Shown here piece by piece: positions 2,903 to 56,050 of a stretch of 64,000 nucleotides of DNA. Source of the DNA: a virus. Location of the stretch: positions 1-64,000 of IMG/VR virus record IMGVR_UViG_3300037520_002383; one strand, written 5' to 3'. Every line of letters starts with the position of its first letter. The stretch's first letter is position 1. The notes beneath the pieces were generated by a model, which searched no databases, had not been told where the DNA came from, and saw only the letters and a program-made list of their open reading frames with translations. The translations under genes and the position numbers were made by a program.

Positions 2903-5900
2903 GTGATGTCATCCTCCTCTTGCGCCGCTGCGACTTCGGCCGTCAAGCCATCTCCACCCCAAACCCTTACGGCATCAGATAGCTTCTGCGAACCAGCCAT
3001 AGGATACCCGGCATTTCCCAGCCCCACATCGTCTGGATACAACACTTTTACATTCAGACCAGGACCGGCGGCGACGGCCGACCGCACGGCAGATTCAGCC
3101 GCAACGCGACCGGCATTGGAGTTCGTGACGTAAAAGGAGCCGCGGGTCTGCGCGTTTTCGGGGAAGCCGGGTGATTGCTGTGACAGCAATGTTACTTTGG
3201 CGCCTACGGCGTACGCATACGGCCAAATATACCGATTGTCGATAGCCAACTCCGTATTCGAAATCCGCCTCAGATAGGGTATAGGGTAGGCGGCGTCTTC
3301 GTAGCCGACCCGGATAGCCAACCAGCCGGGGGCATCGGGGAAGCTGGCGGCGTTAGCTAGCGCCAAGACACCGATCTGGGCATTCTTGGAGATGGCCGTG
3401 GTGATGGTCGACTCCGTTGACGTCAACAGGGGGCTGGCTTTGTCATCCCAAACATATGGACCGATGGCGCGGGCCTGCGCGCTAGCCGTCGTGGTCTTGT
3501 TCAATGTGATTGTGGCGCCGGGCGCCATCTCCGATCGCAGCACGTCCCCCGTTTCTAGACCCGATATCGTAAAGGACGTCGACGATGGAACCGACGTAAC
3601 GCGATGAACGCCATTGACGCGATGCGCCGGCGCAGCGTAATCGGAACCGGGTACGAAGACAGCCGTCACTGTTTGGGGCGTGAATGAAGTGCTGGTGAGA
3701 GAGCTGTTGCCGGTAGTGGCGTCTTCGCCACCGAAAAAGAAGCCGACGCCGCCGCTGACCACAGCTACGCCGTAGTCATAAGCAAATCCCGCCGTGGCAA
3801 ATCCTTCTGCGTTACTGAACGGAGCCAAGCTCCATTTGCCCGTTGGAATATCATAGACTTCAGTGGGGAAAATGGAGCTGGTAGCGAATGATCCTGCTTG
3901 ACGCATGCCGCCAATAACATAAACCTTAGTTCCGATTCGGAAGACCACCGGATTATATCGGCCATAGCGCAAACGCCCAGCCGGCGTCCAGGCGCCAGTG
4001 GCGACATCAAACATTTCCACCTCGTCTACCAGACGAGATACGGTTTCATTAGCTAATACGCGCCCAAACCCCCCAATCGCCAGTGCCCTACCACCGCCGA
4101 TGTCCACCACTCGATGCCGAAAGCGCGCTACGGCCATTCGTCCGGGGGTTGTCCAGGTGGGGGTAATGAGATTGCTGGCGAAGTTCGTGGAATCCAGTGG
4201 CGTCGTACCGAAACCACCACACCACAAGGCCGCAACGGGTTTTGTGGCATCGTCGATAGCCGACAAAGCACAGCCGGCATGTTCACTGCGGGCATCGGTG
4301 TCAGTGTTTGATAGGCCGACGGTAGACGCCGCGGCCACAGCCAGACCGTTCACGGCGGGATTGAAAACCGAGATGACGTTGGTGCGCGAAGAAACTGTGT
4401 CTTGGCCGCCAATAATCAATACTTGTTGACGCTGTGAGGCATCGAGAATCGTCAGCGCCAGAGGGAAGCGGCAGGCGGGGTGGGTGGTATTGGCGACAGT
4501 CAAGAAGCTGCCCACATTCGCGCCGCCAGTCGCCGACAAAAAGAGACGAGCGTTTTGTGTGAAAGTGGGGGTATTAGCGGTCTGGCCGCAGACAATAAAC
4601 GCGCCGATCCCTAGAGACCCTCTGTAGGATGAGGCACCTGAGTACGCGGCGGCATATCCGGTATCGGCGGTGGAATAGTGATTGTAAGAATAAACGGGAC
4701 GAGATGCCGCATCCAATGTGGTGCCCAGAAAGCGCATGACCTTGTAGGTAGAATAATAGGTCGCGGTGGTCCGACCGCCGTGAATGAAGATGTCGCCGTT
4801 ATTCAGCGCTACACCGGCGGCGCCGGTGCGAGCAACAAAGGAATCTAGCGAGCGTACGAAGCTAACGAAAGATTGACGGCTGGCGCCCGTGGTGCCCGTA
4901 GCGCCGGCGGCGCCATCGATGGGCACGGTCGTCAGGGGGTGGGTATATGAGGTCGGCCGAACATTATCCAGCGTAACGAAATCATTGGCCTGTAGGCCGT
5001 GAGCGACACCCGTAGTTACGGTTAGGGATCCGTTGGGGCCCAGGGTTGCCGAGAGATCGCCGAGAGCCGATGTCGTCTGTGCCGGCACATAAGCAGCCTT
5101 ATAGGCTTCTCGCGTTACGACTTTTGTAGTCGTTGGCAGATGCAGACGAATGGCGTTGCCGACGCCAGAGACCATGGCGCCGTTACTCGATGGCGCTGTG
5201 TAGGTAGCTCGATATACTTGCAGGTCATTGGCAGCCACCGACAAGGGACCGGCTTGCGTTACGGCCACGGGATTCACGATCGTCAGGGTCTGCAGATAAG
5301 CGCTTCCGGTCCACGTCACGGTAACGTCAGTGATTTCAAATGTTCCGCGATTGGCAACGTTCAGGTCGCTATCGCGTGCCAACAAATAATCACCAACACG
5401 CACATTCATCGCCGGAGTGCTGGTTGTGATGGCCACCGCCGCCTTATCGTTGCCTGGAAGCGAAATGGCATAAGTGCTGCCGGCGACAACGTTGGCTACC
5501 AACTCCGGAAAACGAAGTGGGTATTGAGCCAGGCCACCGACGACACGGATCTTAGAAGCCAACCCCAAGGTGGGAGAGTAAATCGAAACCCGATACAGTC
5601 CCGTGTCGGGGTTCAGGTTTGTCGCCGCCCAGGCCCTGCTGCCGAGCTGACGCAACTGACGGCTGATAGACGCCGCGACTTCGATGGCCTGAGCCTGACC
5701 AATAATAGCGAAATCGGCCGTAGAAAACACAATAGGATATATTGTGCCGTCTATATCAATCTGCAACTGCATCTGATCACTAAGCGCGTATGGTGCATCA
5801 ACTTGAGTTTGAATGACGGCCCTAACGGCGCTACTGCCATAGAATACTTCTAAAATCTCCCAGATCGCCTTGTAGGTGATTCTGTCTGATGACAGGCGAA

Positions 5901-35944: not shown

Positions 35945-37294
35945 ATGCCCCGCAAGCCCCGTTCGAAGGTCGCCCATCGCAAGATCTTTGTGCTCGATAC
36001 CAATGTATTGTTGCATGATCCAAGAGCCATATTCTCTTTTGGCGACAATGATGTAGTCATCCCCATCTATGTTGTCGAGGAAATCGATACATTCAAGAAG
36101 GATGCCAGCGAGCTGGGGCGGAATGCGCGGGAAGTTAGCCGCCACCTCGATGAACTGCGGGCCGCGGGCTCTCTGGCCAGAGGCGTGCCGTTGCCCAAGG
36201 GCGGCAGCCTGCGGGTGGCCACGACGCACCTTGAGCTGCCCGAAGAGGTGACCACCGACCGCGGCCAAGACAGCAAGATCATGGCCGTGGCGTTAGACCT
36301 CAGCAGCTGCAGCGACCAGAAGGTCGTCTTCATCACCAAGGATACGAACCTGCGTATCCGCGCCGACGCCGTCGGCATCTATACCGAGGACTTTGAGCCC
36401 GAGCAGGTGGTTGCCATCGATGACCTCTATCACGGCTGGCAGGAGATCGATGTCGCCGAGGAAGTCATCCACGACTTCTACACCGCCGGCGCCTGCCGCC
36501 TGCCTGATGCCGTCTACGGCCCCAACCAGTACCTGTGCCTGAAGGCGCGTGGCAACCCCGGCTACAGCGCCATCGGCCGCGTCAAGCCGGCTGAGGGCGG
36601 TGGTTGGCTGCTGGCGCCCTTGGCTGCACACCCCGGCGGCGTCTGGGGCCTGAAGCCCAAGAACCGGGAGCAGTCGTTTGCCCTCGATGCGCTGATGGAC
36701 GACGACATCAAACTGGTGACGCTCGTCGGCAAGGCGGGCTGCGGCAAGACGCTGATGGCCATCGCCGCCGGCCTCGCCAAGGTCACTGACAGCCACAGCT
36801 TCCAGAAGCTGCTGGTATCGCGCCCCGTCTTCCCGCTGGGCCGCGACATCGGCTACCTGCCGGGGACGGTGGAGGAGAAGCTGAACCCCTGGATGCAGCC
36901 GATCTTCGACAACGTCGAGTTCCTGATGGGGCTGACGACGAAGGAGAAGAAGAAGGGCCGCAGCCATAAGGAGTTGATTGATCTGGGTCTGGTGCAGATT
37001 GAGCCCCTGACATACATCCGCGGCCGCAGCATTCCGCAGCAGTACATGATCGTCGACGAGGCGCAGAACCTGACGCCGCATGAAGTCAAGACCATCATCA
37101 GCCGCGCCGGCGAGGGCACCAAGATCGTGTTGACGGGCGACCCCTACCAGATCGACAACCCCTACGTCGATCAGACCAACAACGGCCTCGTCCACGTCGT
37201 CAACCGCTTCCGCGGCGAGAAGATCGCGGCGCACGTCATGCTGACGAAGGGCGAGCGGTCGCCGCTGGCTGAGATCGCCACCAACCTGCTGTAG
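35945..37294 (+). CDS. phoH: PIN domain-PhoH family ATPase (PhoH2/YlaK-like)
   Basis: VLDTNVLLHDP (PIN), Walker A GKAGCGKT, IGYLPG, YIRGRS, DEAQN, GDPYQID, ERSPLA. Confidence 0.95.
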   Translation: MPRKPRSKVAHRKIFVLDTNVLLHDPRAIFSFGDNDVVIPIYVVEEIDTFKKDASELGRNAREVSRHLDELRAAGSLARGVPLPKGGSLRVATTHLELPEEVTTDRGQDSKIMAVALDLSSCSDQKVVFITKDTNLRIRADAVGIYTEDFEPEQVVAIDDLYHGWQEIDVAEEVIHDFYTAGACRLPDAVYGPNQYLCLKARGNPGYSAIGRVKPAEGGGWLLAPLAAHPGGVWGLKPKNREQSFALDALMDDDIKLVTLVGKAGCGKTLMAIAAGLAKVTDSHSFQKLLVSRPVFPLGRDIGYLPGTVEEKLNPWMQPIFDNVEFLMGLTTKEKKKGRSHKELIDLGLVQIEPLTYIRGRSIPQQYMIVDEAQNLTPHEVKTIISRAGEGTKIVLTGDPYQIDNPYVDQTNNGLVHVVNRFRGEKIAAHVMLTKGERSPLAEIATNLL

Positions 37295-39309: not shown

Positions 39310-39564
39310 ATGACTGCCAGAGAACGCCTGCGACTGAAGGGGCCGGGGATTGCCCTGAGCCTCCGCGTGCCCGAAAACACCGTCCCCAGCTACGACCACG
39401 CCCTTGTCTCGACCCTCGACGGCCGCGCCGAGGCCCGCTACTACATGGCCATCGATGAGGGCCTGCTGGTGGCCGGCGGCGCCGAAGTCGATCTGACGCC
39501 GCGGCAGCTTTTGTGGCTGCTGGCTCAGGGGCGGGTGCTGGATAACGCCATTGAAAGTGCTTGA
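39310..39564 (+). CDS. Hypothetical protein
   Basis: GGAG SD; stop lies in TTGACG. Confidence 0.65.
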   Translation: MTARERLRLKGPGIALSLRVPENTVPSYDHALVSTLDGRAEARYYMAIDEGLLVAGGAEVDLTPRQLLWLLAQGRVLDNAIESA

Positions 39565-46960: not shown

Positions 46961-47006
46961 TGCTGCTCCATTCTGAGGTACTTAGGCTGACGATAGCATT
47001 TTGCGC

Positions 47007-47095: not shown

Positions 47096-47332
47096 GTGAC
47101 ACTGAAGAGCTTTGAAGGCGATGACGCCGAGACTAACCGCCGCCGACAGCGAGTAGCCGGCAAGCGGCAGCTGCACAACCTGCTTGAGGACCAAGAAGAG
47201 GAAGAGACTCCGGAGGAACGAGAGTATCGCCTCGAACAGGAAGAACTGCGGCGCCTCGATACTGACCTCAAACGCCTGCAATGGGTCGAAGCCGCCGTCG
47301 ACATCTTAGCCCACGATGAAGAGGCGGCCTGA
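47096..47332 (+). CDS. Acidic coiled-coil protein
   Basis: AGGAGG SD before GTG. Confidence 0.6.
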   Translation: MTLKSFEGDDAETNRRRQRVAGKRQLHNLLEDQEEEETPEEREYRLEQEELRRLDTDLKRLQWVEAAVDILAHDEEAA

Positions 47333-47424
47333 AGATAATCAAGGGAACTTACTTTTCCCGGCAGGGAAATAAAGGGGGCTTTACTAGCCTCCTTTTCCTT
47401 TTCGGGAAAACGCAAAGATGGTGC

Positions 47425-47453
47425 TTGACGGTTGCCGCCGATTCTTGTAGGCT
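47425..47453 (+). promoter_or_regulatory. Early promoter, leaderless
   Basis: TTGACG-N17-TAGGCT-N6-ATG. Confidence 0.85.
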
Positions 47454-47459
47454 GAGGGC

Positions 47460-48140
47460 ATGAACAACACCAACGCCGTCGCTGAAACCACCACCGCCAC
47501 CTTCTCCGTGCCCGAGAGCCGCCTTGAATGGCTGAAGGCCGAGCTTGCCAAGCTGGCAAAGCGCGCCAACAAGATCGGCTGCATCGCTCCGACGATGGTC
47601 GTCGGCGACAGCACACTGGTGAAACACGCCAACGGCGACGGCGACGGCGAGAGCGTTGCCACCTTCATCCGCCATTTTGCCGTCACCGTCACCGGTCAGG
47701 CGCCGCGCATCAACGGCTGGACATTCGTGGCCACCCTCGACCACGCCGACGGCGAGGTGGTCCTGCGCACGCACCCCAGTTTTGAGGGCCAGCTGCCGCC
47801 GCGCTTCCGCTGCGCCGACCCTCGCAACTGCGACCACTGCCACATGGTGCGTCAGCGCACCGAGACCTTTGTGCTGCGCAACGACGCCACCGGCGACTTT
47901 CAGCAAATCGGCCGCCAGTGCCTGCGCGACTTCCTTGGCCACGAGAACCCGATGTCGGTGGCCGCCACGGCCGAACTCCTCTGGGACCTGTGCGAGACCG
48001 CCGAGGCTTCGGAGCACGAGGCCGGCGGGAGTCACGCTGGCAACTACGTCGACGCCGTCGAGTTCCTGTCCTTTGTCGCCGCCGCCATTCGCATGGAAGG
48101 CTGGACCAGCCGCAAGGCGGCGCGCGAAGCCACCTTCTGA
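47460..48140 (+). CDS. N-terminal half of an apparently split phage protein (Cys/His zinc-like motif)
   Basis: CDHCHMVRQRTETFVL...QIGRQCLRDFLG; leaderless start. Confidence 0.75.
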   Translation: MNNTNAVAETTTATFSVPESRLEWLKAELAKLAKRANKIGCIAPTMVVGDSTLVKHANGDGDGESVATFIRHFAVTVTGQAPRINGWTFVATLDHADGEVVLRTHPSFEGQLPPRFRCADPRNCDHCHMVRQRTETFVLRNDATGDFQQIGRQCLRDFLGHENPMSVAATAELLWDLCETAEASEHEAGGSHAGNYVDAVEFLSFVAAAIRMEGWTSRKAAREATF

Positions 48141-48202
48141 GGTAGGCCCGGTCAATACCCGCAGGAAGTTACGCTGGGCGTGACTTTCGGCGGGCTTTGT
48201 GC

Positions 48203-48231
48203 TTGACAGCCTTGGCCGTCTCCTGTAGGCT
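48203..48231 (+). promoter_or_regulatory. Early promoter inside the 100-nt insert
   Basis: TTGACA-N17-TAGGCT. Confidence 0.8.
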
Positions 48232-48255
48232 GCCTTCATCAACACGGAGTCGCAT

Positions 48256-48936
48256 ATGAAGACCGCCACCGCCGACCTCGCTATGACCGTCATGTTCAGC
48301 CGCAGCAAGGAGCGCCGCGAATGGCAGGAGGCCGGCTTCTTCCCCACCGACGACGACACCCAGATCGCCATCAAGGCGCTGGAGTGGGCGCGCGAGACCT
48401 TCGGCGCCAAGACCGCCGAGGAGCGCAGCGACTTTGAGCACAACATGTACGTCGCCAGCAAGGGCAACGTCATGAACCTCAAGAACAGCGGCCTCGCCGC
48501 CTACATCGTCGCCGGCTACCTCAAGGAGCAGGAGCGTCTGGCCCGCGCCAAGGCCTTCCGCGGCCGCGACATGACCGCCAGCCAGCACTTCGGCGTCGTC
48601 GGCGAGAAGCTGATGCTGCAGGCCGTGGTTGTGGGCGTCAAGAAGATCGAGGGCTTCTACGGCACGACGACGATCATCAAGCTGCTGACCGAAGACGGCA
48701 ACGTGGGCGTGTGGTTCGCCAGCAACGCCCCTGAGGCAATCGAGAAGGCTATGGAGACTGAGGAGCCGACGACCTTCACCCTCGTCGCCACCATCAAGGA
48801 CCATGATGCCTATCAAGGTATCAATCAGACCCAGCTGACGCGCTGCAAGCTGGTTGATGTCGCCGACATTGAGAAGGAAACCAAGAAGCTGGCCAAGGAG
48901 AAGGCGAAGAAGATGAAGGTGGCTAACGCCGCATAA
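48256..48936 (+). CDS. C-terminal half of the apparently split protein (OB-fold-like)
   Basis: SQHFGVVGEKL...GFYGTTTII...GNVGVWFAS...ATIKDHDAYQGINQTQLTRCK. Confidence 0.75.
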   Translation: MKTATADLAMTVMFSRSKERREWQEAGFFPTDDDTQIAIKALEWARETFGAKTAEERSDFEHNMYVASKGNVMNLKNSGLAAYIVAGYLKEQERLARAKAFRGRDMTASQHFGVVGEKLMLQAVVVGVKKIEGFYGTTTIIKLLTEDGNVGVWFASNAPEAIEKAMETEEPTTFTLVATIKDHDAYQGINQTQLTRCKLVDVADIEKETKKLAKEKAKKMKVANAA

Positions 48937-48963
48937 TCCGCGAGACTCCCGCCAGCAGCAAAG

Positions 48964-48985
48964 AGCCGCCCGAGGGCGGCTTTTT
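48964..48985 (+). terminator. Intrinsic terminator
   Basis: AGCCGCC-CGAG-GGCGGCT-TTTT. Confidence 0.85.
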
Positions 48986-49683: not shown

Positions 49684-49998
49684 ATGAACACCAAGATAAT
49701 GCACACGGCGTTTGCAAACTCCATTGCCGGCTTCGCCATTCTCTTCCATCTACAGAAACATGGCCCCGATTCTCGAACCAATATCATCGATGCCGTATCG
49801 CGGCGGCTGGCGGGTATGGATCAGACGTCGATCGCCGATGTGACGCGCGTCACATCGGCGGCCATTCAGTTGGCTATCGACTGTCGCTACGTCGATGGCC
49901 TTAGTGGCTATCGCCTGAGGATCACAGAAGAAGGCGCGGCGATGTCAGAAAAACTGCAGTTTTTTTATGCTAGCATTTTGAAACCGACCCAACCTTGA
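49684..49998 (+). CDS. Putative winged-helix protein (leaderless)
   Basis: YRLRITEEG wing-like motif; ATG 6 nt after TAGAAT. Confidence 0.65.
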   Translation: MNTKIMHTAFANSIAGFAILFHLQKHGPDSRTNIIDAVSRRLAGMDQTSIADVTRVTSAAIQLAIDCRYVDGLSGYRLRITEEGAAMSEKLQFFYASILKPTQP

Positions 49999-50039
49999 AA
50001 ATATGGCGGCGTTTTGCCGCCGTGAAAGGGGTGGGTATC

Positions 50040-50756
50040 ATGCAGCGACTGTGGTTTGCTCTGTCACTTCTCTCGACATCTCCTTCCCTAGATCACGAAG
50101 TGCCTTTGGTTCCGCCGCAGGCTGCCGCAACGGCAGCCGCCGCCGCCGCGCCGCCGGTCATTGACGCGAGTCCGCAGCTGAAGTCTTTGGTAATCGTGGA
50201 TCGACCCACCAAGGTGGCTCAAGTCATCTTGGATGTTGCGCTGAATGACCGAACGACAGAGGCGCTGGAAAATACCTTGGAGTCGCTTCCCGCCGAAACT
50301 GAGTTTGTCGTGCTGGTGATTGACAGCCCCGGCGGTTTGTTGACGGCCAGTCGCGATATCTCTCGTATCATCGAAAGCAGCCACAAAAAAATCGTCTGTG
50401 TTGTGGATGGCCTGGGGGCTTCCGGCGCTTATTATCTGCTGCAGAGCTGTGGTCTACGATTGATGACGGCGCGCAGCAATCTCATGCTTCATGAGGCATT
50501 CGTTCCCAGCCCCCAGGAGCCGGAGGCCAACGAGGCGCTGGCACTTTCTGCCGTCAACTCGTCCATGGCCTGGCAGCAATGTCATCGCCTGCGCATCTCC
50601 ATTCCCGAATGCCATGCACAATACAGCAACGGACGGGAGTGGTGGCTGACGCCGCAAGAGGCCGTGGCCGTGGGTGCCGTCGATGGCATTGTCGAGACGC
50701 CGATGCAGGTGATGCTGGATATAAGCGGCATAAAGCCCGAGGCGACCAATAAATAA
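50040..50756 (+). CDS. ClpP/crotonase-fold serine protease with signal-like N-terminus
   Basis: IDSPGG, VDGLGASGAYY (Ser), NLMLHE (His), WWLTPQEAVAVGAVDGI. Confidence 0.8.
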   Translation: MQRLWFALSLLSTSPSLDHEVPLVPPQAAATAAAAAAPPVIDASPQLKSLVIVDRPTKVAQVILDVALNDRTTEALENTLESLPAETEFVVLVIDSPGGLLTASRDISRIIESSHKKIVCVVDGLGASGAYYLLQSCGLRLMTARSNLMLHEAFVPSPQEPEANEALALSAVNSSMAWQQCHRLRISIPECHAQYSNGREWWLTPQEAVAVGAVDGIVETPMQVMLDISGIKPEATNK

Positions 50757-53503: not shown

Positions 53504-56050
53504 TCACGCCGACTGTTGAACCTGTGAGACGACGAAGCTGATGGGAATGAAGTAAATCGCACCCGCCAGCTTGATCTCAAGGCTAACGAGCATCACCGGT
53601 CCCGCAATCTGAACGACAGCATTCTTGTAACCCTTTGGGGCATCGCTGCTGGAGGCAATAAGCTTCAATCGCGAGAAGTCGGCCATGATGCTGTCCAGCG
53701 TCGCCTTCGCAATGGCCGCCGAGACATCGGCGGTCGATTGACCGAGGAAGGCGATCTCCATGCGCTGAGCCGTCGACAAGGCAATCAGATCCGCGGCATA
53801 CGTCGCCTGGATGCTGTTGTAGACGAAGTTGTTGTCACGGCTGTAGGTTGTCTGATCGCTGACCCAAGCGAATCCACCCGTGGACTTGCGGGCCATCACC
53901 AAGAGACCCGAAGTCAACGCCTGCTCAGTCGCCGTCAGGTCGCGATCGTCGAAGTCGCGCGCCGCCTGCAATACGCCACTGCAGTTGACGCCCTTGTTGA
54001 CAATCGCGCGATAGAAGCCGGCGGCCTGCATGCCGGCGGCCAACACCGAGGCCATCCAGGGCTGATACTGGGTGATGACGCCGGCGCCCGAAACCAACTT
54101 GACGTCTTGGAAGGCCAATGAGCAACGGTAGGCAGCCAGGTTGGCTGCCGACTCACGCGCCGCAGCAAAGGTCGTGCGCTTGCTCAGGAAGCCCTGGCGG
54201 TGGCGACGGCGCTTCAGCGTCGACATCTTATTGACATGCGTCTTGACCACGGCATTCAAGCCATCGATGGTGTACGTCGAAGTTGCTTCCGTAAGGCCAT
54301 CGGTGATGTCGGCGCCGACGGCATCGCGGCTGAAGAGGGGGACGATGAAGTTCGTCGACACTTTCTCCAGGGCGTCAATCGCCGACGTCAAGTTGGCCGA
54401 CGTCGTGCCGCCTTTAGTGCCACCGGCCAGGAAGCCGGCGGCTTGCGTCGCCGGCAATCCAGCGTTGGCGCGTACCACCGTTCCGCTGGTGTTCTGCAAC
54501 TGCACCAGAGCCGATTCCTCGCTGATCTTTTTGAAGAAATCGTAGGCGTCAACCTTGATGCGGCCGGCGCGCGTGCCATGCGTCGTGCAGATGCCAATCG
54601 TCGAAACGCGATCCAGCGCCGTAGAAGGCAACTGCCCGACAACCGCCGACTCGACGGAAGCAGAGTAGCCGGTTTGCGTATTGATATAAGCCGCCAAGTC
54701 TGCAACCGTAGCGAAGTCACTGAGGTTCAGGGTCAGGTTGGAGCCAGAACCACCAGACACCGTCGCCGTAAATACGCCGGCGCTGGAGATCGTCAGGAGG
54801 GCCAAGGTGCCGGTATAACCGACATTCAAGACCACGCGGCCGCCAGACACCAAATCCTCGGAGATACCATCGGACTGACGACTAAGCGACAGCTGGGCGA
54901 TGTACTCGGCAACCGATGTCAATCGAGCCGAGGCGGTGGACTTGGAAATCCAAGTCACTGGGGTGCTCGTGCCAAGCACATAGGCACAGCGCTCCAGCAA
55001 GTCCGTGCCGGTGGTCAACTGAGCAATCTCGATGACCTTGCCGACGCCGTCGATTGGGTTACCAGCCTCAAGTGTGATGACCGCCGGAGAGTACACAACC
55101 AAGTTATTGGCGGGAGTACCGCCGACGGCAACCGAAGCGACATCGACGCAGTTGACTGGTCCGCCAACAACAGCGCCGGTCTGACCCGCATCCGAAAGTT
55201 TGGTGGCCGAGATGCTGTTCGATGAGGCGGCGGTGACGACATACGCACCGACGTTGTCGCCCGAAGCACCGCCGGCGCCCGTGAGGACCGAAGATACGCC
55301 AATCACCAACGTATCTCCTGCCGTCGGCACAACAGGAAAAGTCGCGGTCGTAGTGATGGTGATGTTTCTGCTAGTGCCAGAACCGCCAACAACACCCAAC
55401 GCCAAGTTACCCGTCGTTGGGTGGGCTACGCGATCGACGCCACCGGTCGCCAAAGGCCCGGCGAGACCGTTGACTGTCGACACAAACGCCGTGGGTGTAG
55501 TGTTGGCAGTCAACGCCACCGAGATGGCGGCACCGCCATTGACGCGCACTTCAAAGTTCACCGTTCCCACGCCGGGAATATAAGTAAACGAGCCCGTCGT
55601 CGGCAGGCTCTCGGCCTGCGAGGCCAAAAGCTGGCTCTGGATGAGGTTACCCAAGCGGCCATACGACTTATCGGCAATCACGCCGTAGGTCGTAGCGGCA
55701 AAGTTCACCAGGTTGCGCGTGGCCTTCGTCGAGGCGTTGGTCTTGACGAGGATGACGCGCGACGGTCCGCCGCTGATGTTGATGTCGTTGGCCGGCGAGG
55801 CGATTGCGCGCATGGCATCGACCAAGTTGCCGCTGCGGTACTTGGCGACGACTGCCGCCACCTGATCGACACCGAAGGCGTTTGCCTCCAGGTCATCTTC
55901 CAATGACCAGTCGGGACCGGCATCGGCTTCGCCTACCAGCGTCACGACGCCATTGGCCGCCAAGCCGCTTGTCTCTGCCGCCACCTTGACGGTAGAATAG
56001 GCGCCGGGGATGATGAGAGTGCCTTCGGTGGTGGTGTAAGAGAGAGCCAT
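53504..56050 (-). CDS. Contractile tail sheath protein
   Basis: IIPGAYSTV...VVTLVGEADAGP N-terminus; C-terminal SDQTTY...NSIQATYAAD, AIYFIPISF. Confidence 0.9.
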   Translation of the reverse strand: MALSYTTTEGTLIIPGAYSTVKVAAETSGLAANGVVTLVGEADAGPDWSLEDDLEANAFGVDQVAAVVAKYRSGNLVDAMRAIASPANDINISGGPSRVILVKTNASTKATRNLVNFAATTYGVIADKSYGRLGNLIQSQLLASQAESLPTTGSFTYIPGVGTVNFEVRVNGGAAISVALTANTTPTAFVSTVNGLAGPLATGGVDRVAHPTTGNLALGVVGGSGTSRNITITTTATFPVVPTAGDTLVIGVSSVLTGAGGASGDNVGAYVVTAASSNSISATKLSDAGQTGAVVGGPVNCVDVASVAVGGTPANNLVVYSPAVITLEAGNPIDGVGKVIEIAQLTTGTDLLERCAYVLGTSTPVTWISKSTASARLTSVAEYIAQLSLSRQSDGISEDLVSGGRVVLNVGYTGTLALLTISSAGVFTATVSGGSGSNLTLNLSDFATVADLAAYINTQTGYSASVESAVVGQLPSTALDRVSTIGICTTHGTRAGRIKVDAYDFFKKISEESALVQLQNTSGTVVRANAGLPATQAAGFLAGGTKGGTTSANLTSAIDALEKVSTNFIVPLFSRDAVGADITDGLTEATSTYTIDGLNAVVKTHVNKMSTLKRRRHRQGFLSKRTTFAAARESAANLAAYRCSLAFQDVKLVSGAGVITQYQPWMASVLAAGMQAAGFYRAIVNKGVNCSGVLQAARDFDDRDLTATEQALTSGLLVMARKSTGGFAWVSDQTTYSRDNNFVYNSIQATYAADLIALSTAQRMEIAFLGQSTADVSAAIAKATLDSIMADFSRLKLIASSSDAPKGYKNAVVQIAGPVMLVSLEIKLAGAIYFIPISFVVSQVQQSA

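Follow-up and report, generated by a model that had tools for sequence, protein, structure and literature searches.

A widespread two-domain phage protein encoded by two adjacent genes: a probable old gene fission at a stem-loop and promoter spacer

In the 64,000 nucleotides (nt) of viral DNA analyzed here (the window; positions 1 to 64,000 of IMG/VR record IMGVR_UViG_3300037520_002383), two open reading frames (ORFs) of 226 amino acids (aa) each follow one another on the plus strand, ORF1 at 47460..48140 and ORF2 at 48256..48936, with a spacer of 115 nt between the ORF1 stop (TGA 48138-40) and the ORF2 ATG. The question raised by this locus is whether the two ORFs are pieces of one gene and, if so, what parted them and whether one product is still made. 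An earlier note, based on the letters of the DNA, had proposed that a gene is split by an insert of exactly 100 nt that holds a hairpin and a promoter, and had offered two options: a recent mobile terminator-promoter cassette, which duplicated 5 bp (CCTTC) on insertion and gives a snapshot of how the promoter array spreads, or ribosomal bypassing of the T4 gene 60 type, from TTC 48135 to TTC 48235, yielding one fused protein. The underlying reading of the letters was right: the 3' end of ORF1 is GCC ACC TTC TGA (TTC at 48135-37), a second TTC at 48235-37 is in frame with ORF2, excision of the 100 nt at 48138-48237 joins the frames, ORF2 being in the +1 frame relative to ORF1, and GTAGGC occurs near both ends of the insert (48142-47 and 48225-30). 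The joining of the frames is not unique to those 100 nt, however, as any deletion of 3n+1 bases suffices. Of the interpretation, the collinear halves of one protein and the stem-loop and full promoter between them were upheld, whereas the recent cassette and the bypass were not. The locus very probably represents an old and fixed gene fission, through which a two-domain protein of the phrog_2319 family is now encoded by two separately initiated adjacent genes, the second of which has its own promoter and a leader with a Shine-Dalgarno (SD) sequence.

The phrog_2319 family, a phage protein of unknown function, is described by a profile of 399 positions. Residues 12-225 of ORF1 match positions 3-210 of this profile (E 5e-40) and residues 17-201 of ORF2 match positions 227-398 (E 7.6e-33), so that ORF1 is the N-terminal and ORF2 the C-terminal half of the family, in collinear order. 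ORF1 carries the conserved C-D-H-C ... G-R-Q-C motif and ORF2 comprises a helical part and a region that, judged by eye, resembles an OB-fold. In the window the two domains are not contained in one polypeptide, as a stop, the 115-nt spacer and a change of frame lie between them. The statement in the earlier note that both regions usually make up one protein of about 400-450 aa was confirmed by the profile, by the 60 homologs of ORF1 recovered in a search restricted to longer proteins (all 397-1187 aa) and by the loci found in IMG/VR. Scoring of 44 such loci by script showed the N- and C-part in one ORF in 39 cases; three more have a full-length ORF (418-448 aa) whose C-part was missed by tblastn, one is cut by the contig end and a single one, L002, is split. 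Homologs of the two halves are therefore not normally separate proteins. Within 16 metagenome loci, both parts occurred in one ORF in ten, the L002 contig was found again once, and the remaining five were too short or had no detectable C-part; the same scan also gave a relative at 57% identity that is cut at its contig end (L047). An exhaustive search with ORF2 yielded 5076 representatives at E up to 0.001, and within the best 150 of these, 121 measured at least 355 aa and 29 fewer than 330 aa.

The cultured phages gave the same picture. All tblastn matches in their genomes were below 60% identity, and both records that were inspected contain a single long coding sequence (RsoM2USA_104, 1173 nt, and Tunturi_5 gp318, 1362 nt); the flag for a double hit on RsoM2USA reflected an overlapping opposite-strand annotation and no split. 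In two further cultured phages the N- and C-hits abut on the same strand. Altogether, the single-chain forms span phages of Vibrio, Aeromonas, Rhodobacter, Ruegeria, Ralstonia, Streptomyces and Tunturiibacter. Phage records searched with blastn yielded no match and two scans of genome contigs recovered no relative, while a scan of IMG/VR with distant stand-alone C-halves returned only the contig of L002 and one single-chain locus.

The break is located between the two domains. In the family alignment (A1), the end of ORF1 (...GWTSRKAAREATF) and the start of ORF2 (MKTATADLAM...) abut in a gap-rich linker of variable length, between the conserved GW.SR and T.DLA motifs, and no conserved column is lost or duplicated at the cut. 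The closest single-chain homolog, P0001, reads ...GWMSAGRARDLE-MQSTKDLAL across this region, and its Met aligns with Met1 of ORF2. The junction proposed in the earlier note would insert six residues (INTESH), which no alignment requires. Judged from these alignments, the locus marks the inter-domain boundary of the phrog_2319 protein.

The spacer contains a stem-loop, a promoter and an SD sequence, an anatomy that would suit a terminator-promoter cassette. The stem-loop (48158..48194, plus strand) consists of 5 + 11 base pairs with the loop TGG and one bulge on each side, and is followed by CTTTGTGCTT; CCCGC (48158-62) pairs with GCGGG (48190-94), and GGAAGTTACGC (48164-74) with GCGTGACTTTC (48178-88). 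The fold has a free energy of -25.9 kcal/mol (z -5.0) and none of 200 shuffled sequences was as stable. A hairpin had been announced in the earlier note and is indeed present, but the folding supports the CCCGC/GCGGG pairing and not the GCCCG-GTCA/TGAC-CGGGC arms given there. We propose that this element may act as a terminator, an attenuator or a stabilizer of the 3' end of the ORF1 transcript. It is followed by a promoter, predicted by sequence at 48202..48231 on the plus strand (-35 TTGACA at 48203-08, a 17-nt spacer and -10 TAGGCT at 48226-31), which is as complete as had been claimed: it matches the repeated motif CTTGAC-N17-GTAGGCT with 0 mismatches. The motif occurs 11 times in the window, against 0.94 expected, a number reached in 0 of 100 shuffles, and 9 of the 11 copies are on the plus strand. 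The membership of this repeated set likewise speaks in favor of a cassette. The predicted leader of the ORF2 mRNA (48238..48255, plus strand) measures 18 nt and carries the SD sequence GGAG (48246-49) 6 nt before the ATG; the distance from the -10 to the ATG is 24 nt, of which about 18 nt would be transcribed. The frame of ORF2 is closed upstream by a TAG within the -10 hexamer.

ORF1 has a perfect copy of the same promoter at 47424..47453 (plus strand, 0 mismatches), and since the ATG follows 6 nt after its -10, a leaderless ORF1 mRNA is predicted. In the interval 20125-48231 of the window, seven of the nine plus-strand promoters, including that of ORF1, have an ATG after 6-7 nt, mostly as ATGAAC (Met-Asn), which suggests leaderless mRNAs. 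Leaders of 22-24 nt with GGAG are confined to the promoters at 39560 and 48202. At the promoter at 47006, the ATG that lies 6 nt on opens an ORF of 9 codons only (ATG AAT CAA ... TGC TAA), and the next sizeable ORF downstream is found at 47096-47332 (78 aa, GTG start).

The split locus could be compared with its counterpart in a relative, L002, an IMG/VR contig of 131,625 bp of which a 6.6-kb stretch was used. The amino-acid identity between the two is 74% for the N-half and 84% for the C-half, and the gene downstream of ORF2 is homologous as well. In L002, ORF1' ends with ...CAG TTC TGA at 3657, followed by a spacer of 108 nt and by ORF2' from 3766, and alignment shows the same order of parts as in the window: stop, stem-loop, promoter, SD and ATG. 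The stem-loop is found at the same place with paired changes, the outer CCCGC/GCGGG having become CTCGC/GCGAG and the inner stem also being re-paired, and it folds with -32.8 kcal/mol (z -8.6). After the hairpin, the spacer of L002 reads TTGACA-N17-TAAGCT, GCCTTC, AAGGAGAG, CCGCAT and ATG; it is 7 nt shorter in total, and the stretch from the -10 to the ATG has a 1-nt indel. Identical residues are found at 83 of the 115 spacer positions, which is about the level of the third codon positions of the two halves (75% and 82%), and the conservation is thus concentrated in the hairpin, promoter and leader blocks. Hairpin, promoter, SD and ATG have been kept in this relative, and the ratios of non-synonymous to synonymous substitution (dN/dS) of 0.42 (N-half) and 0.37 (C-half) show that purifying selection acts on both.

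This comparison bears directly on bypassing. Considered in the window alone, the locus resembles T4 gene 60 in that matched codons flank a non-coding gap with a stop after the first of them: the pair of TTC codons matches, TGA 48138-40 directly follows the putative take-off codon (as is true of any ORF end), GGAG lies downstream, and the take-off codon can be drawn into a small local stem-loop. Among the features listed for gene 60 bypassing is a take-off codon situated within the 5' side of a stem-loop (10.1101/2022.08.31.505936). Here, in contrast, the take-off codon is outside the significant stem-loop. The local fold at the take-off site amounts to -9.2 kcal/mol (z -1.06) and is equaled by 24 of 200 shuffles, with a z of +0.32 in L002, and the strong hairpin begins 21 nt past the take-off codon, at 48158. 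Moreover, the gap measures 100 nt and not the 50 nt of gene 60. A matched in-frame landing codon is present in the window but absent in L002, where the downstream TTC is not in the frame of ORF2' and reaches a TGA after 7 codons. ORF1' and ORF2' share one frame (0, versus +1 in the window) with two in-frame stops between them, the TGA that ends ORF1' and a second TGA within the -35. The stretch that would encode INTESH is altered in L002 by the above 1-nt indel, and two of the public sequencing runs described below (X8 and X12) have T>C within it. Such indels and frame changes suit a non-coding leader and not a translated junction, and the spacer therefore argues against bypassing. Furthermore, an independent promoter, an SD and a conserved ATG lie between the ORFs, and all 6 near-length stand-alone C-halves as well as ORF2' of L002 start at this same Met. 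The matching codon in itself says little, as an in-frame TTC before the ATG was obtained in 31-34% of simulated spacers. Bypassing is thus contradicted by L002 and by the retention of ATG, GGAG and promoter, and we give it next to no chance. The two readings predict different peptides: a separately initiated ORF2 would have the N-terminus MKTATADLAMTVMFSR (or the same minus Met), and bypassing the junction peptide EATFINTESHMK (...EATF-INTESHMK...).

The option of a recent cassette leans on the two copies of CCTTC that flank exactly 100 nt. The first (48133..48137, plus strand) is made up of the last sense codon of ORF1, TTC, and the 2 preceding bases, and is AGTTC in L002, so that no CCTTC repeat exists there. 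The second (48233..48237, plus strand) is situated 3' of the -10 and ahead of the predicted transcription start, is found as GCCTTC in L002, out of frame, and by its position in the predicted promoter is part of the discriminator, outside the coding sequence. In simulated spacers a CCTTC arose by chance in-frame in about 3% and anywhere in 15%, and we judge the repeat to be a chance one. The other marks of a transposable insert are missing as well: GTAGGC is a direct and not an inverted repeat, its first copy is absent in L002, and the hairpin exists in single copy. More explicitly, the hairpin core did not recur in the 82,924-bp record, even when up to 3 mismatches were tolerated, and other IMG/VR records contained only the orthologous site of L002 and one further hit (L067), on a contig with an RNA-dependent RNA polymerase-like ORF (an RNA virus), which was rejected as a chance match. 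Inspection of the 90 nt preceding each of the other eight plus-strand promoters showed no similar hairpin, and the repeated part of the unit is the 30-nt promoter only. Rfam had no match within 48138-48255 at E up to 1; its three weak matches were all outside the spacer and far below the gathering scores.

What further contradicts a recent insertion is the distribution of the split. Searches for proteins of near-equal length recovered stand-alone N-halves (219-238 aa) with 93, 74, 73, 72, 62 and 46% identity to ORF1 and stand-alone C-halves (222-248 aa) with 91, 84, 76, 75, 75 and 38% identity to ORF2. One N-half and one C-half (P0064 and P0077), each on a contig of 4267 nt, are probably a pair. 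Within the 29 short representatives in the best 150 mentioned above, eight begin no more than 3 residues from Met1 of ORF2, at about 40-76% identity, with starts such as MAKATADLA, MVQSTADLA and MRQATADLA; the majority of the remaining ones have their start within the N-domain and resemble truncated gene calls. A quick, unrooted maximum-likelihood tree of the N-domain (74 rows, 213 columns) placed the window and five N-halves in one clade with a branch support (SH-aLRT) of 97, while P0066 fell in an unresolved group with the single-chain proteins P0001, P0012, P0037 and P0069. In the C-domain tree (62 rows, 193 columns; proteins of at least 800 aa were left out and the first 51 new representatives used), 13 labeled stand-alone C-halves and P0124 were found on one side and 48 others on the opposite side, with SH-aLRT 93. 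The halves have diverged down to 62% (N) and about 40% (C) identity within the split clade. On these trees and identities the split appears to be old and common to a diverged clade of related lake phages, and because it is common to that clade it is not recent. A cassette that inserted recently with a 5-bp duplication is hence contradicted by the diverged clade, the lack of a CCTTC repeat in L002 and the single-copy hairpin, and is very unlikely.

Two side observations can be added on these stand-alone proteins. A Phe ends ORF1 and four of its five close N-half relatives (P0061-P0065), with ...ATF, AGF, NQF, ADF and RAF, while the fifth ends ...VGG; the residues just before this Phe vary, and the conserved terminal residue might be involved in docking to the C-half. 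Furthermore, the ATAD motif is likewise the starting point of P0122 (316 aa), a protein that falls among the single-chain forms and may represent an independent fission.

An altogether different reading is that the gene is simply broken and decaying, either as a pseudogene or through an assembly error that gave a false stop or frameshift. In favor of this, the family usually has a single ORF, and broken copies may exist, given that the tail of a short homolog (P0070) seems to be out of frame. Against this, both halves are full length with all conserved columns, their dN/dS remains below 0.5, ORF2 has its own SD and ATG, and the arrangement persists across the diverged clade. Also, independent contigs from lake, aquaculture and soil carry the same spacer. 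Four public runs (two from lake water, one from aquaculture and one from soil) were aligned to the stretch: a contig of run X5 is identical across 48103-48358 and bridges the whole spacer, one of X8 (43 differences) covers 48054-48912 and does the same, and one of X12 (12 differences) covers 47867-48227 and bridges most of it. The differences listed within the spacer were G>T at 48189 (in the hairpin bulge), C>G at 48217 (in the promoter spacer) and T>C at 48239 (in the leader; in X8 and X12), and no indels were among the differences listed, the alignment containing 52 further differences. A form without the spacer, in which the halves are joined, was not encountered in the four runs. We consider decay or misassembly extremely unlikely.

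The last alternative reverses the direction of events: the two-gene state could be ancestral and the single chains the result of fusion, or the halves could be independent domain genes that merely happen to be adjacent. The trees are unrooted, proteins with the N-domain only exist (L064), and resemblance to each half is seen in the protein atlas for many viral clusters of 170-260 aa without a name, although these are leads only. The single-chain forms, however, greatly outnumber the split ones and occur in very different phages, and the split clade groups with the single-chain P0001, P0012, P0037 and P0069 in the N-domain tree (support 82). Given how widespread the single-chain forms are, a single fission is a more parsimonious explanation than repeated fusion at one and the same linker. 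Fusion or mere adjacency is therefore improbable, and fission the likely direction.

Some observations nevertheless weigh against an old fission into two regulated genes. The T-run after the hairpin is poor (CTTTGTGC) and a simple terminator scan did not call the hairpin. Both trees are unrooted quick searches, with a support of 93, below 95, for the key branch of the C-domain tree. The spacer DNA was compared for one diverged relative, L002, and for near-identical variants, with the distant split forms P0066 and P0079-P0088 outside the comparison. Finally, the lineage of L064 has an N-domain protein without a neighboring C-half, from which it follows that the halves need not always work together. 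At this locus (2270-3996 of L064, IMGVR_UViG_3300038405_000130) the N-domain stands alone and ends about 20 residues past the cut point of the window; an unrelated ORF of 217 aa lies downstream, and no C-half is detectable in the 5.8-kb locus. L064 and the related proteins P0072 (267 aa) and P0073 (281 aa) were considered as a second example of a split and rejected as such, representing an N-only lineage with an unrelated downstream gene.

Given an old fission, expression of the locus can be pictured as follows. ORF1 would be transcribed from its leaderless-type promoter at 47424-47453, and its translation would stop at the TGA. The transcript may be ended, attenuated or stabilized at the stem-loop. 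ORF2 would then be transcribed from about 48238, and perhaps also by read-through, from a copy of the sigma-70-like promoter that gives a short GGAG leader, and would be translated from its own SD and ATG. The two separate 25-kDa products presumably associate into the equivalent of the single-chain protein.

Known systems provide parallels for both the unit and the outcome. The PeSL (promoter-early stem-loop) elements of T4-type phages combine a stem-loop that can terminate upstream transcription with a sigma-70-like early promoter, an SD and a start codon (PMC2839356, PMC4122927). The spacer is alike in being an intergenic unit of about 100 bp with a stem-loop, a sigma-70-like promoter and SD/ATG in what appears by sequence to be an early-region promoter array, and PeSL modules of this same build are reported to be recombination-prone (PMC2839356), which would favor a cassette. 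There are differences: PeSLs flank whole small ORFans in hyperplastic regions, whereas here the unit lies inside a gene that is single elsewhere, and the roughly 100 bp of the PeSLs are conserved between copies, whereas here only the 30-nt promoter is repeated and the hairpin is unique in the record. In addition, the hosts of PeSLs are T4-type phages, while here the only leads to such a relationship are a tail-sheath match (phrog_279) and a PhoH-like gene. Regarding the outcome at the gene level, a review (PMC2988022) describes gene 43 of the Aeromonas phages 44RR and 25 as split into 43A and 43B, in 44RR by an intercistronic untranslated sequence, and mentions nrdA of Aeh1 and the T4 genes 39/60 as other split phage genes. 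In the cases examined there, NrdA of Aeh1 and 43A/43B of phage 25, the two polypeptides were reported to reassemble into an active enzyme. Like 43A/43B, the present gene is contiguous in relatives and cut into two cistrons, and the spacer of 44RR is untranslated and without an endonuclease gene; by this analogy, gene 43 of 44RR is the closest precedent. The split genes described there are enzymes of known function, however, and several of the splits contain a homing endonuclease gene, whereas here only a hairpin and a promoter are found.

As regards function, Pfam had no match for ORF1 and a sub-threshold one to PF21469 for ORF2 (E 0.16), and of 52 single-chain members 51 had no match and one matched DUF6319 with an E of 0.0058, which is far from convincing. 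A profile of these 52 members compared with the PDB sequences yielded nothing better than E 0.38. The CDHC stretch weakly resembles ribosomal protein L36 (E 0.51), which is a lead only, and the clusters obtained from the protein atlas were viral ones without a name, apart from named ones (DUF6011 at 0.88, ExoX-like_C and QSregVF_b at 0.82-0.83) whose scores are at chance level. The homolog in Tunturi_5, a Tunturiibacter phage (L063, 1201-2562; gp318), is a single chain of 453 aa that is labeled 'RecT-like ssDNA annealing protein' in GenBank and adjoins a gene flagged 'DefenseFinder protein'; a RecT domain was detected by Pfam in none of the 52 family members.

As to the surroundings of the locus, the terminator scan found a canonical intrinsic-terminator-like hairpin with a T-run 3' of ORF2 (48960..48985, plus strand). 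Further along, the window contains a ClpP/S49-type head-maturation-protease-like gene (49995-50756, plus strand; phrog_94, E 1.4e-15) and the tail-sheath gene (53504-56050, minus strand; phrog_279, E 1.9e-32), and the PhoH-like gene is located at 35945-37294. The record is a myovirus-type fragment of 82.9 kb, with an estimated completeness of 51%, and is present in runs from lake water.

For annotation, the finding means that the labels of ORF1 and ORF2 should identify them as N and C subunits of phrog_2319, instead of treating them as a pseudogene or as hypothetical proteins with no relation to each other. It removes one candidate for translational bypassing, which would have been a rare and valuable case, and provides a clean and conserved one of a gene whose interruption, at a domain linker, consists of a terminator-like hairpin and a promoter alone. 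For a widespread protein it marks the domain boundary and supplies a version in two pieces, made by nature, that could be used in studies of expression and interaction. A more tentative idea, which we regard as possible but rather doubtful, is that the PeSL-type module of stem-loop and promoter itself caused the fission by landing in the inter-domain linker of an early gene, and that the split became fixed because the halves were uncoupled. If this were true, the leaderless N-half and the SD-led C-half with its own promoter would differ in timing, dosage or translation regime, and regulatory cassettes would be a source of new gene boundaries in phages, beyond the shuffling of whole genes.

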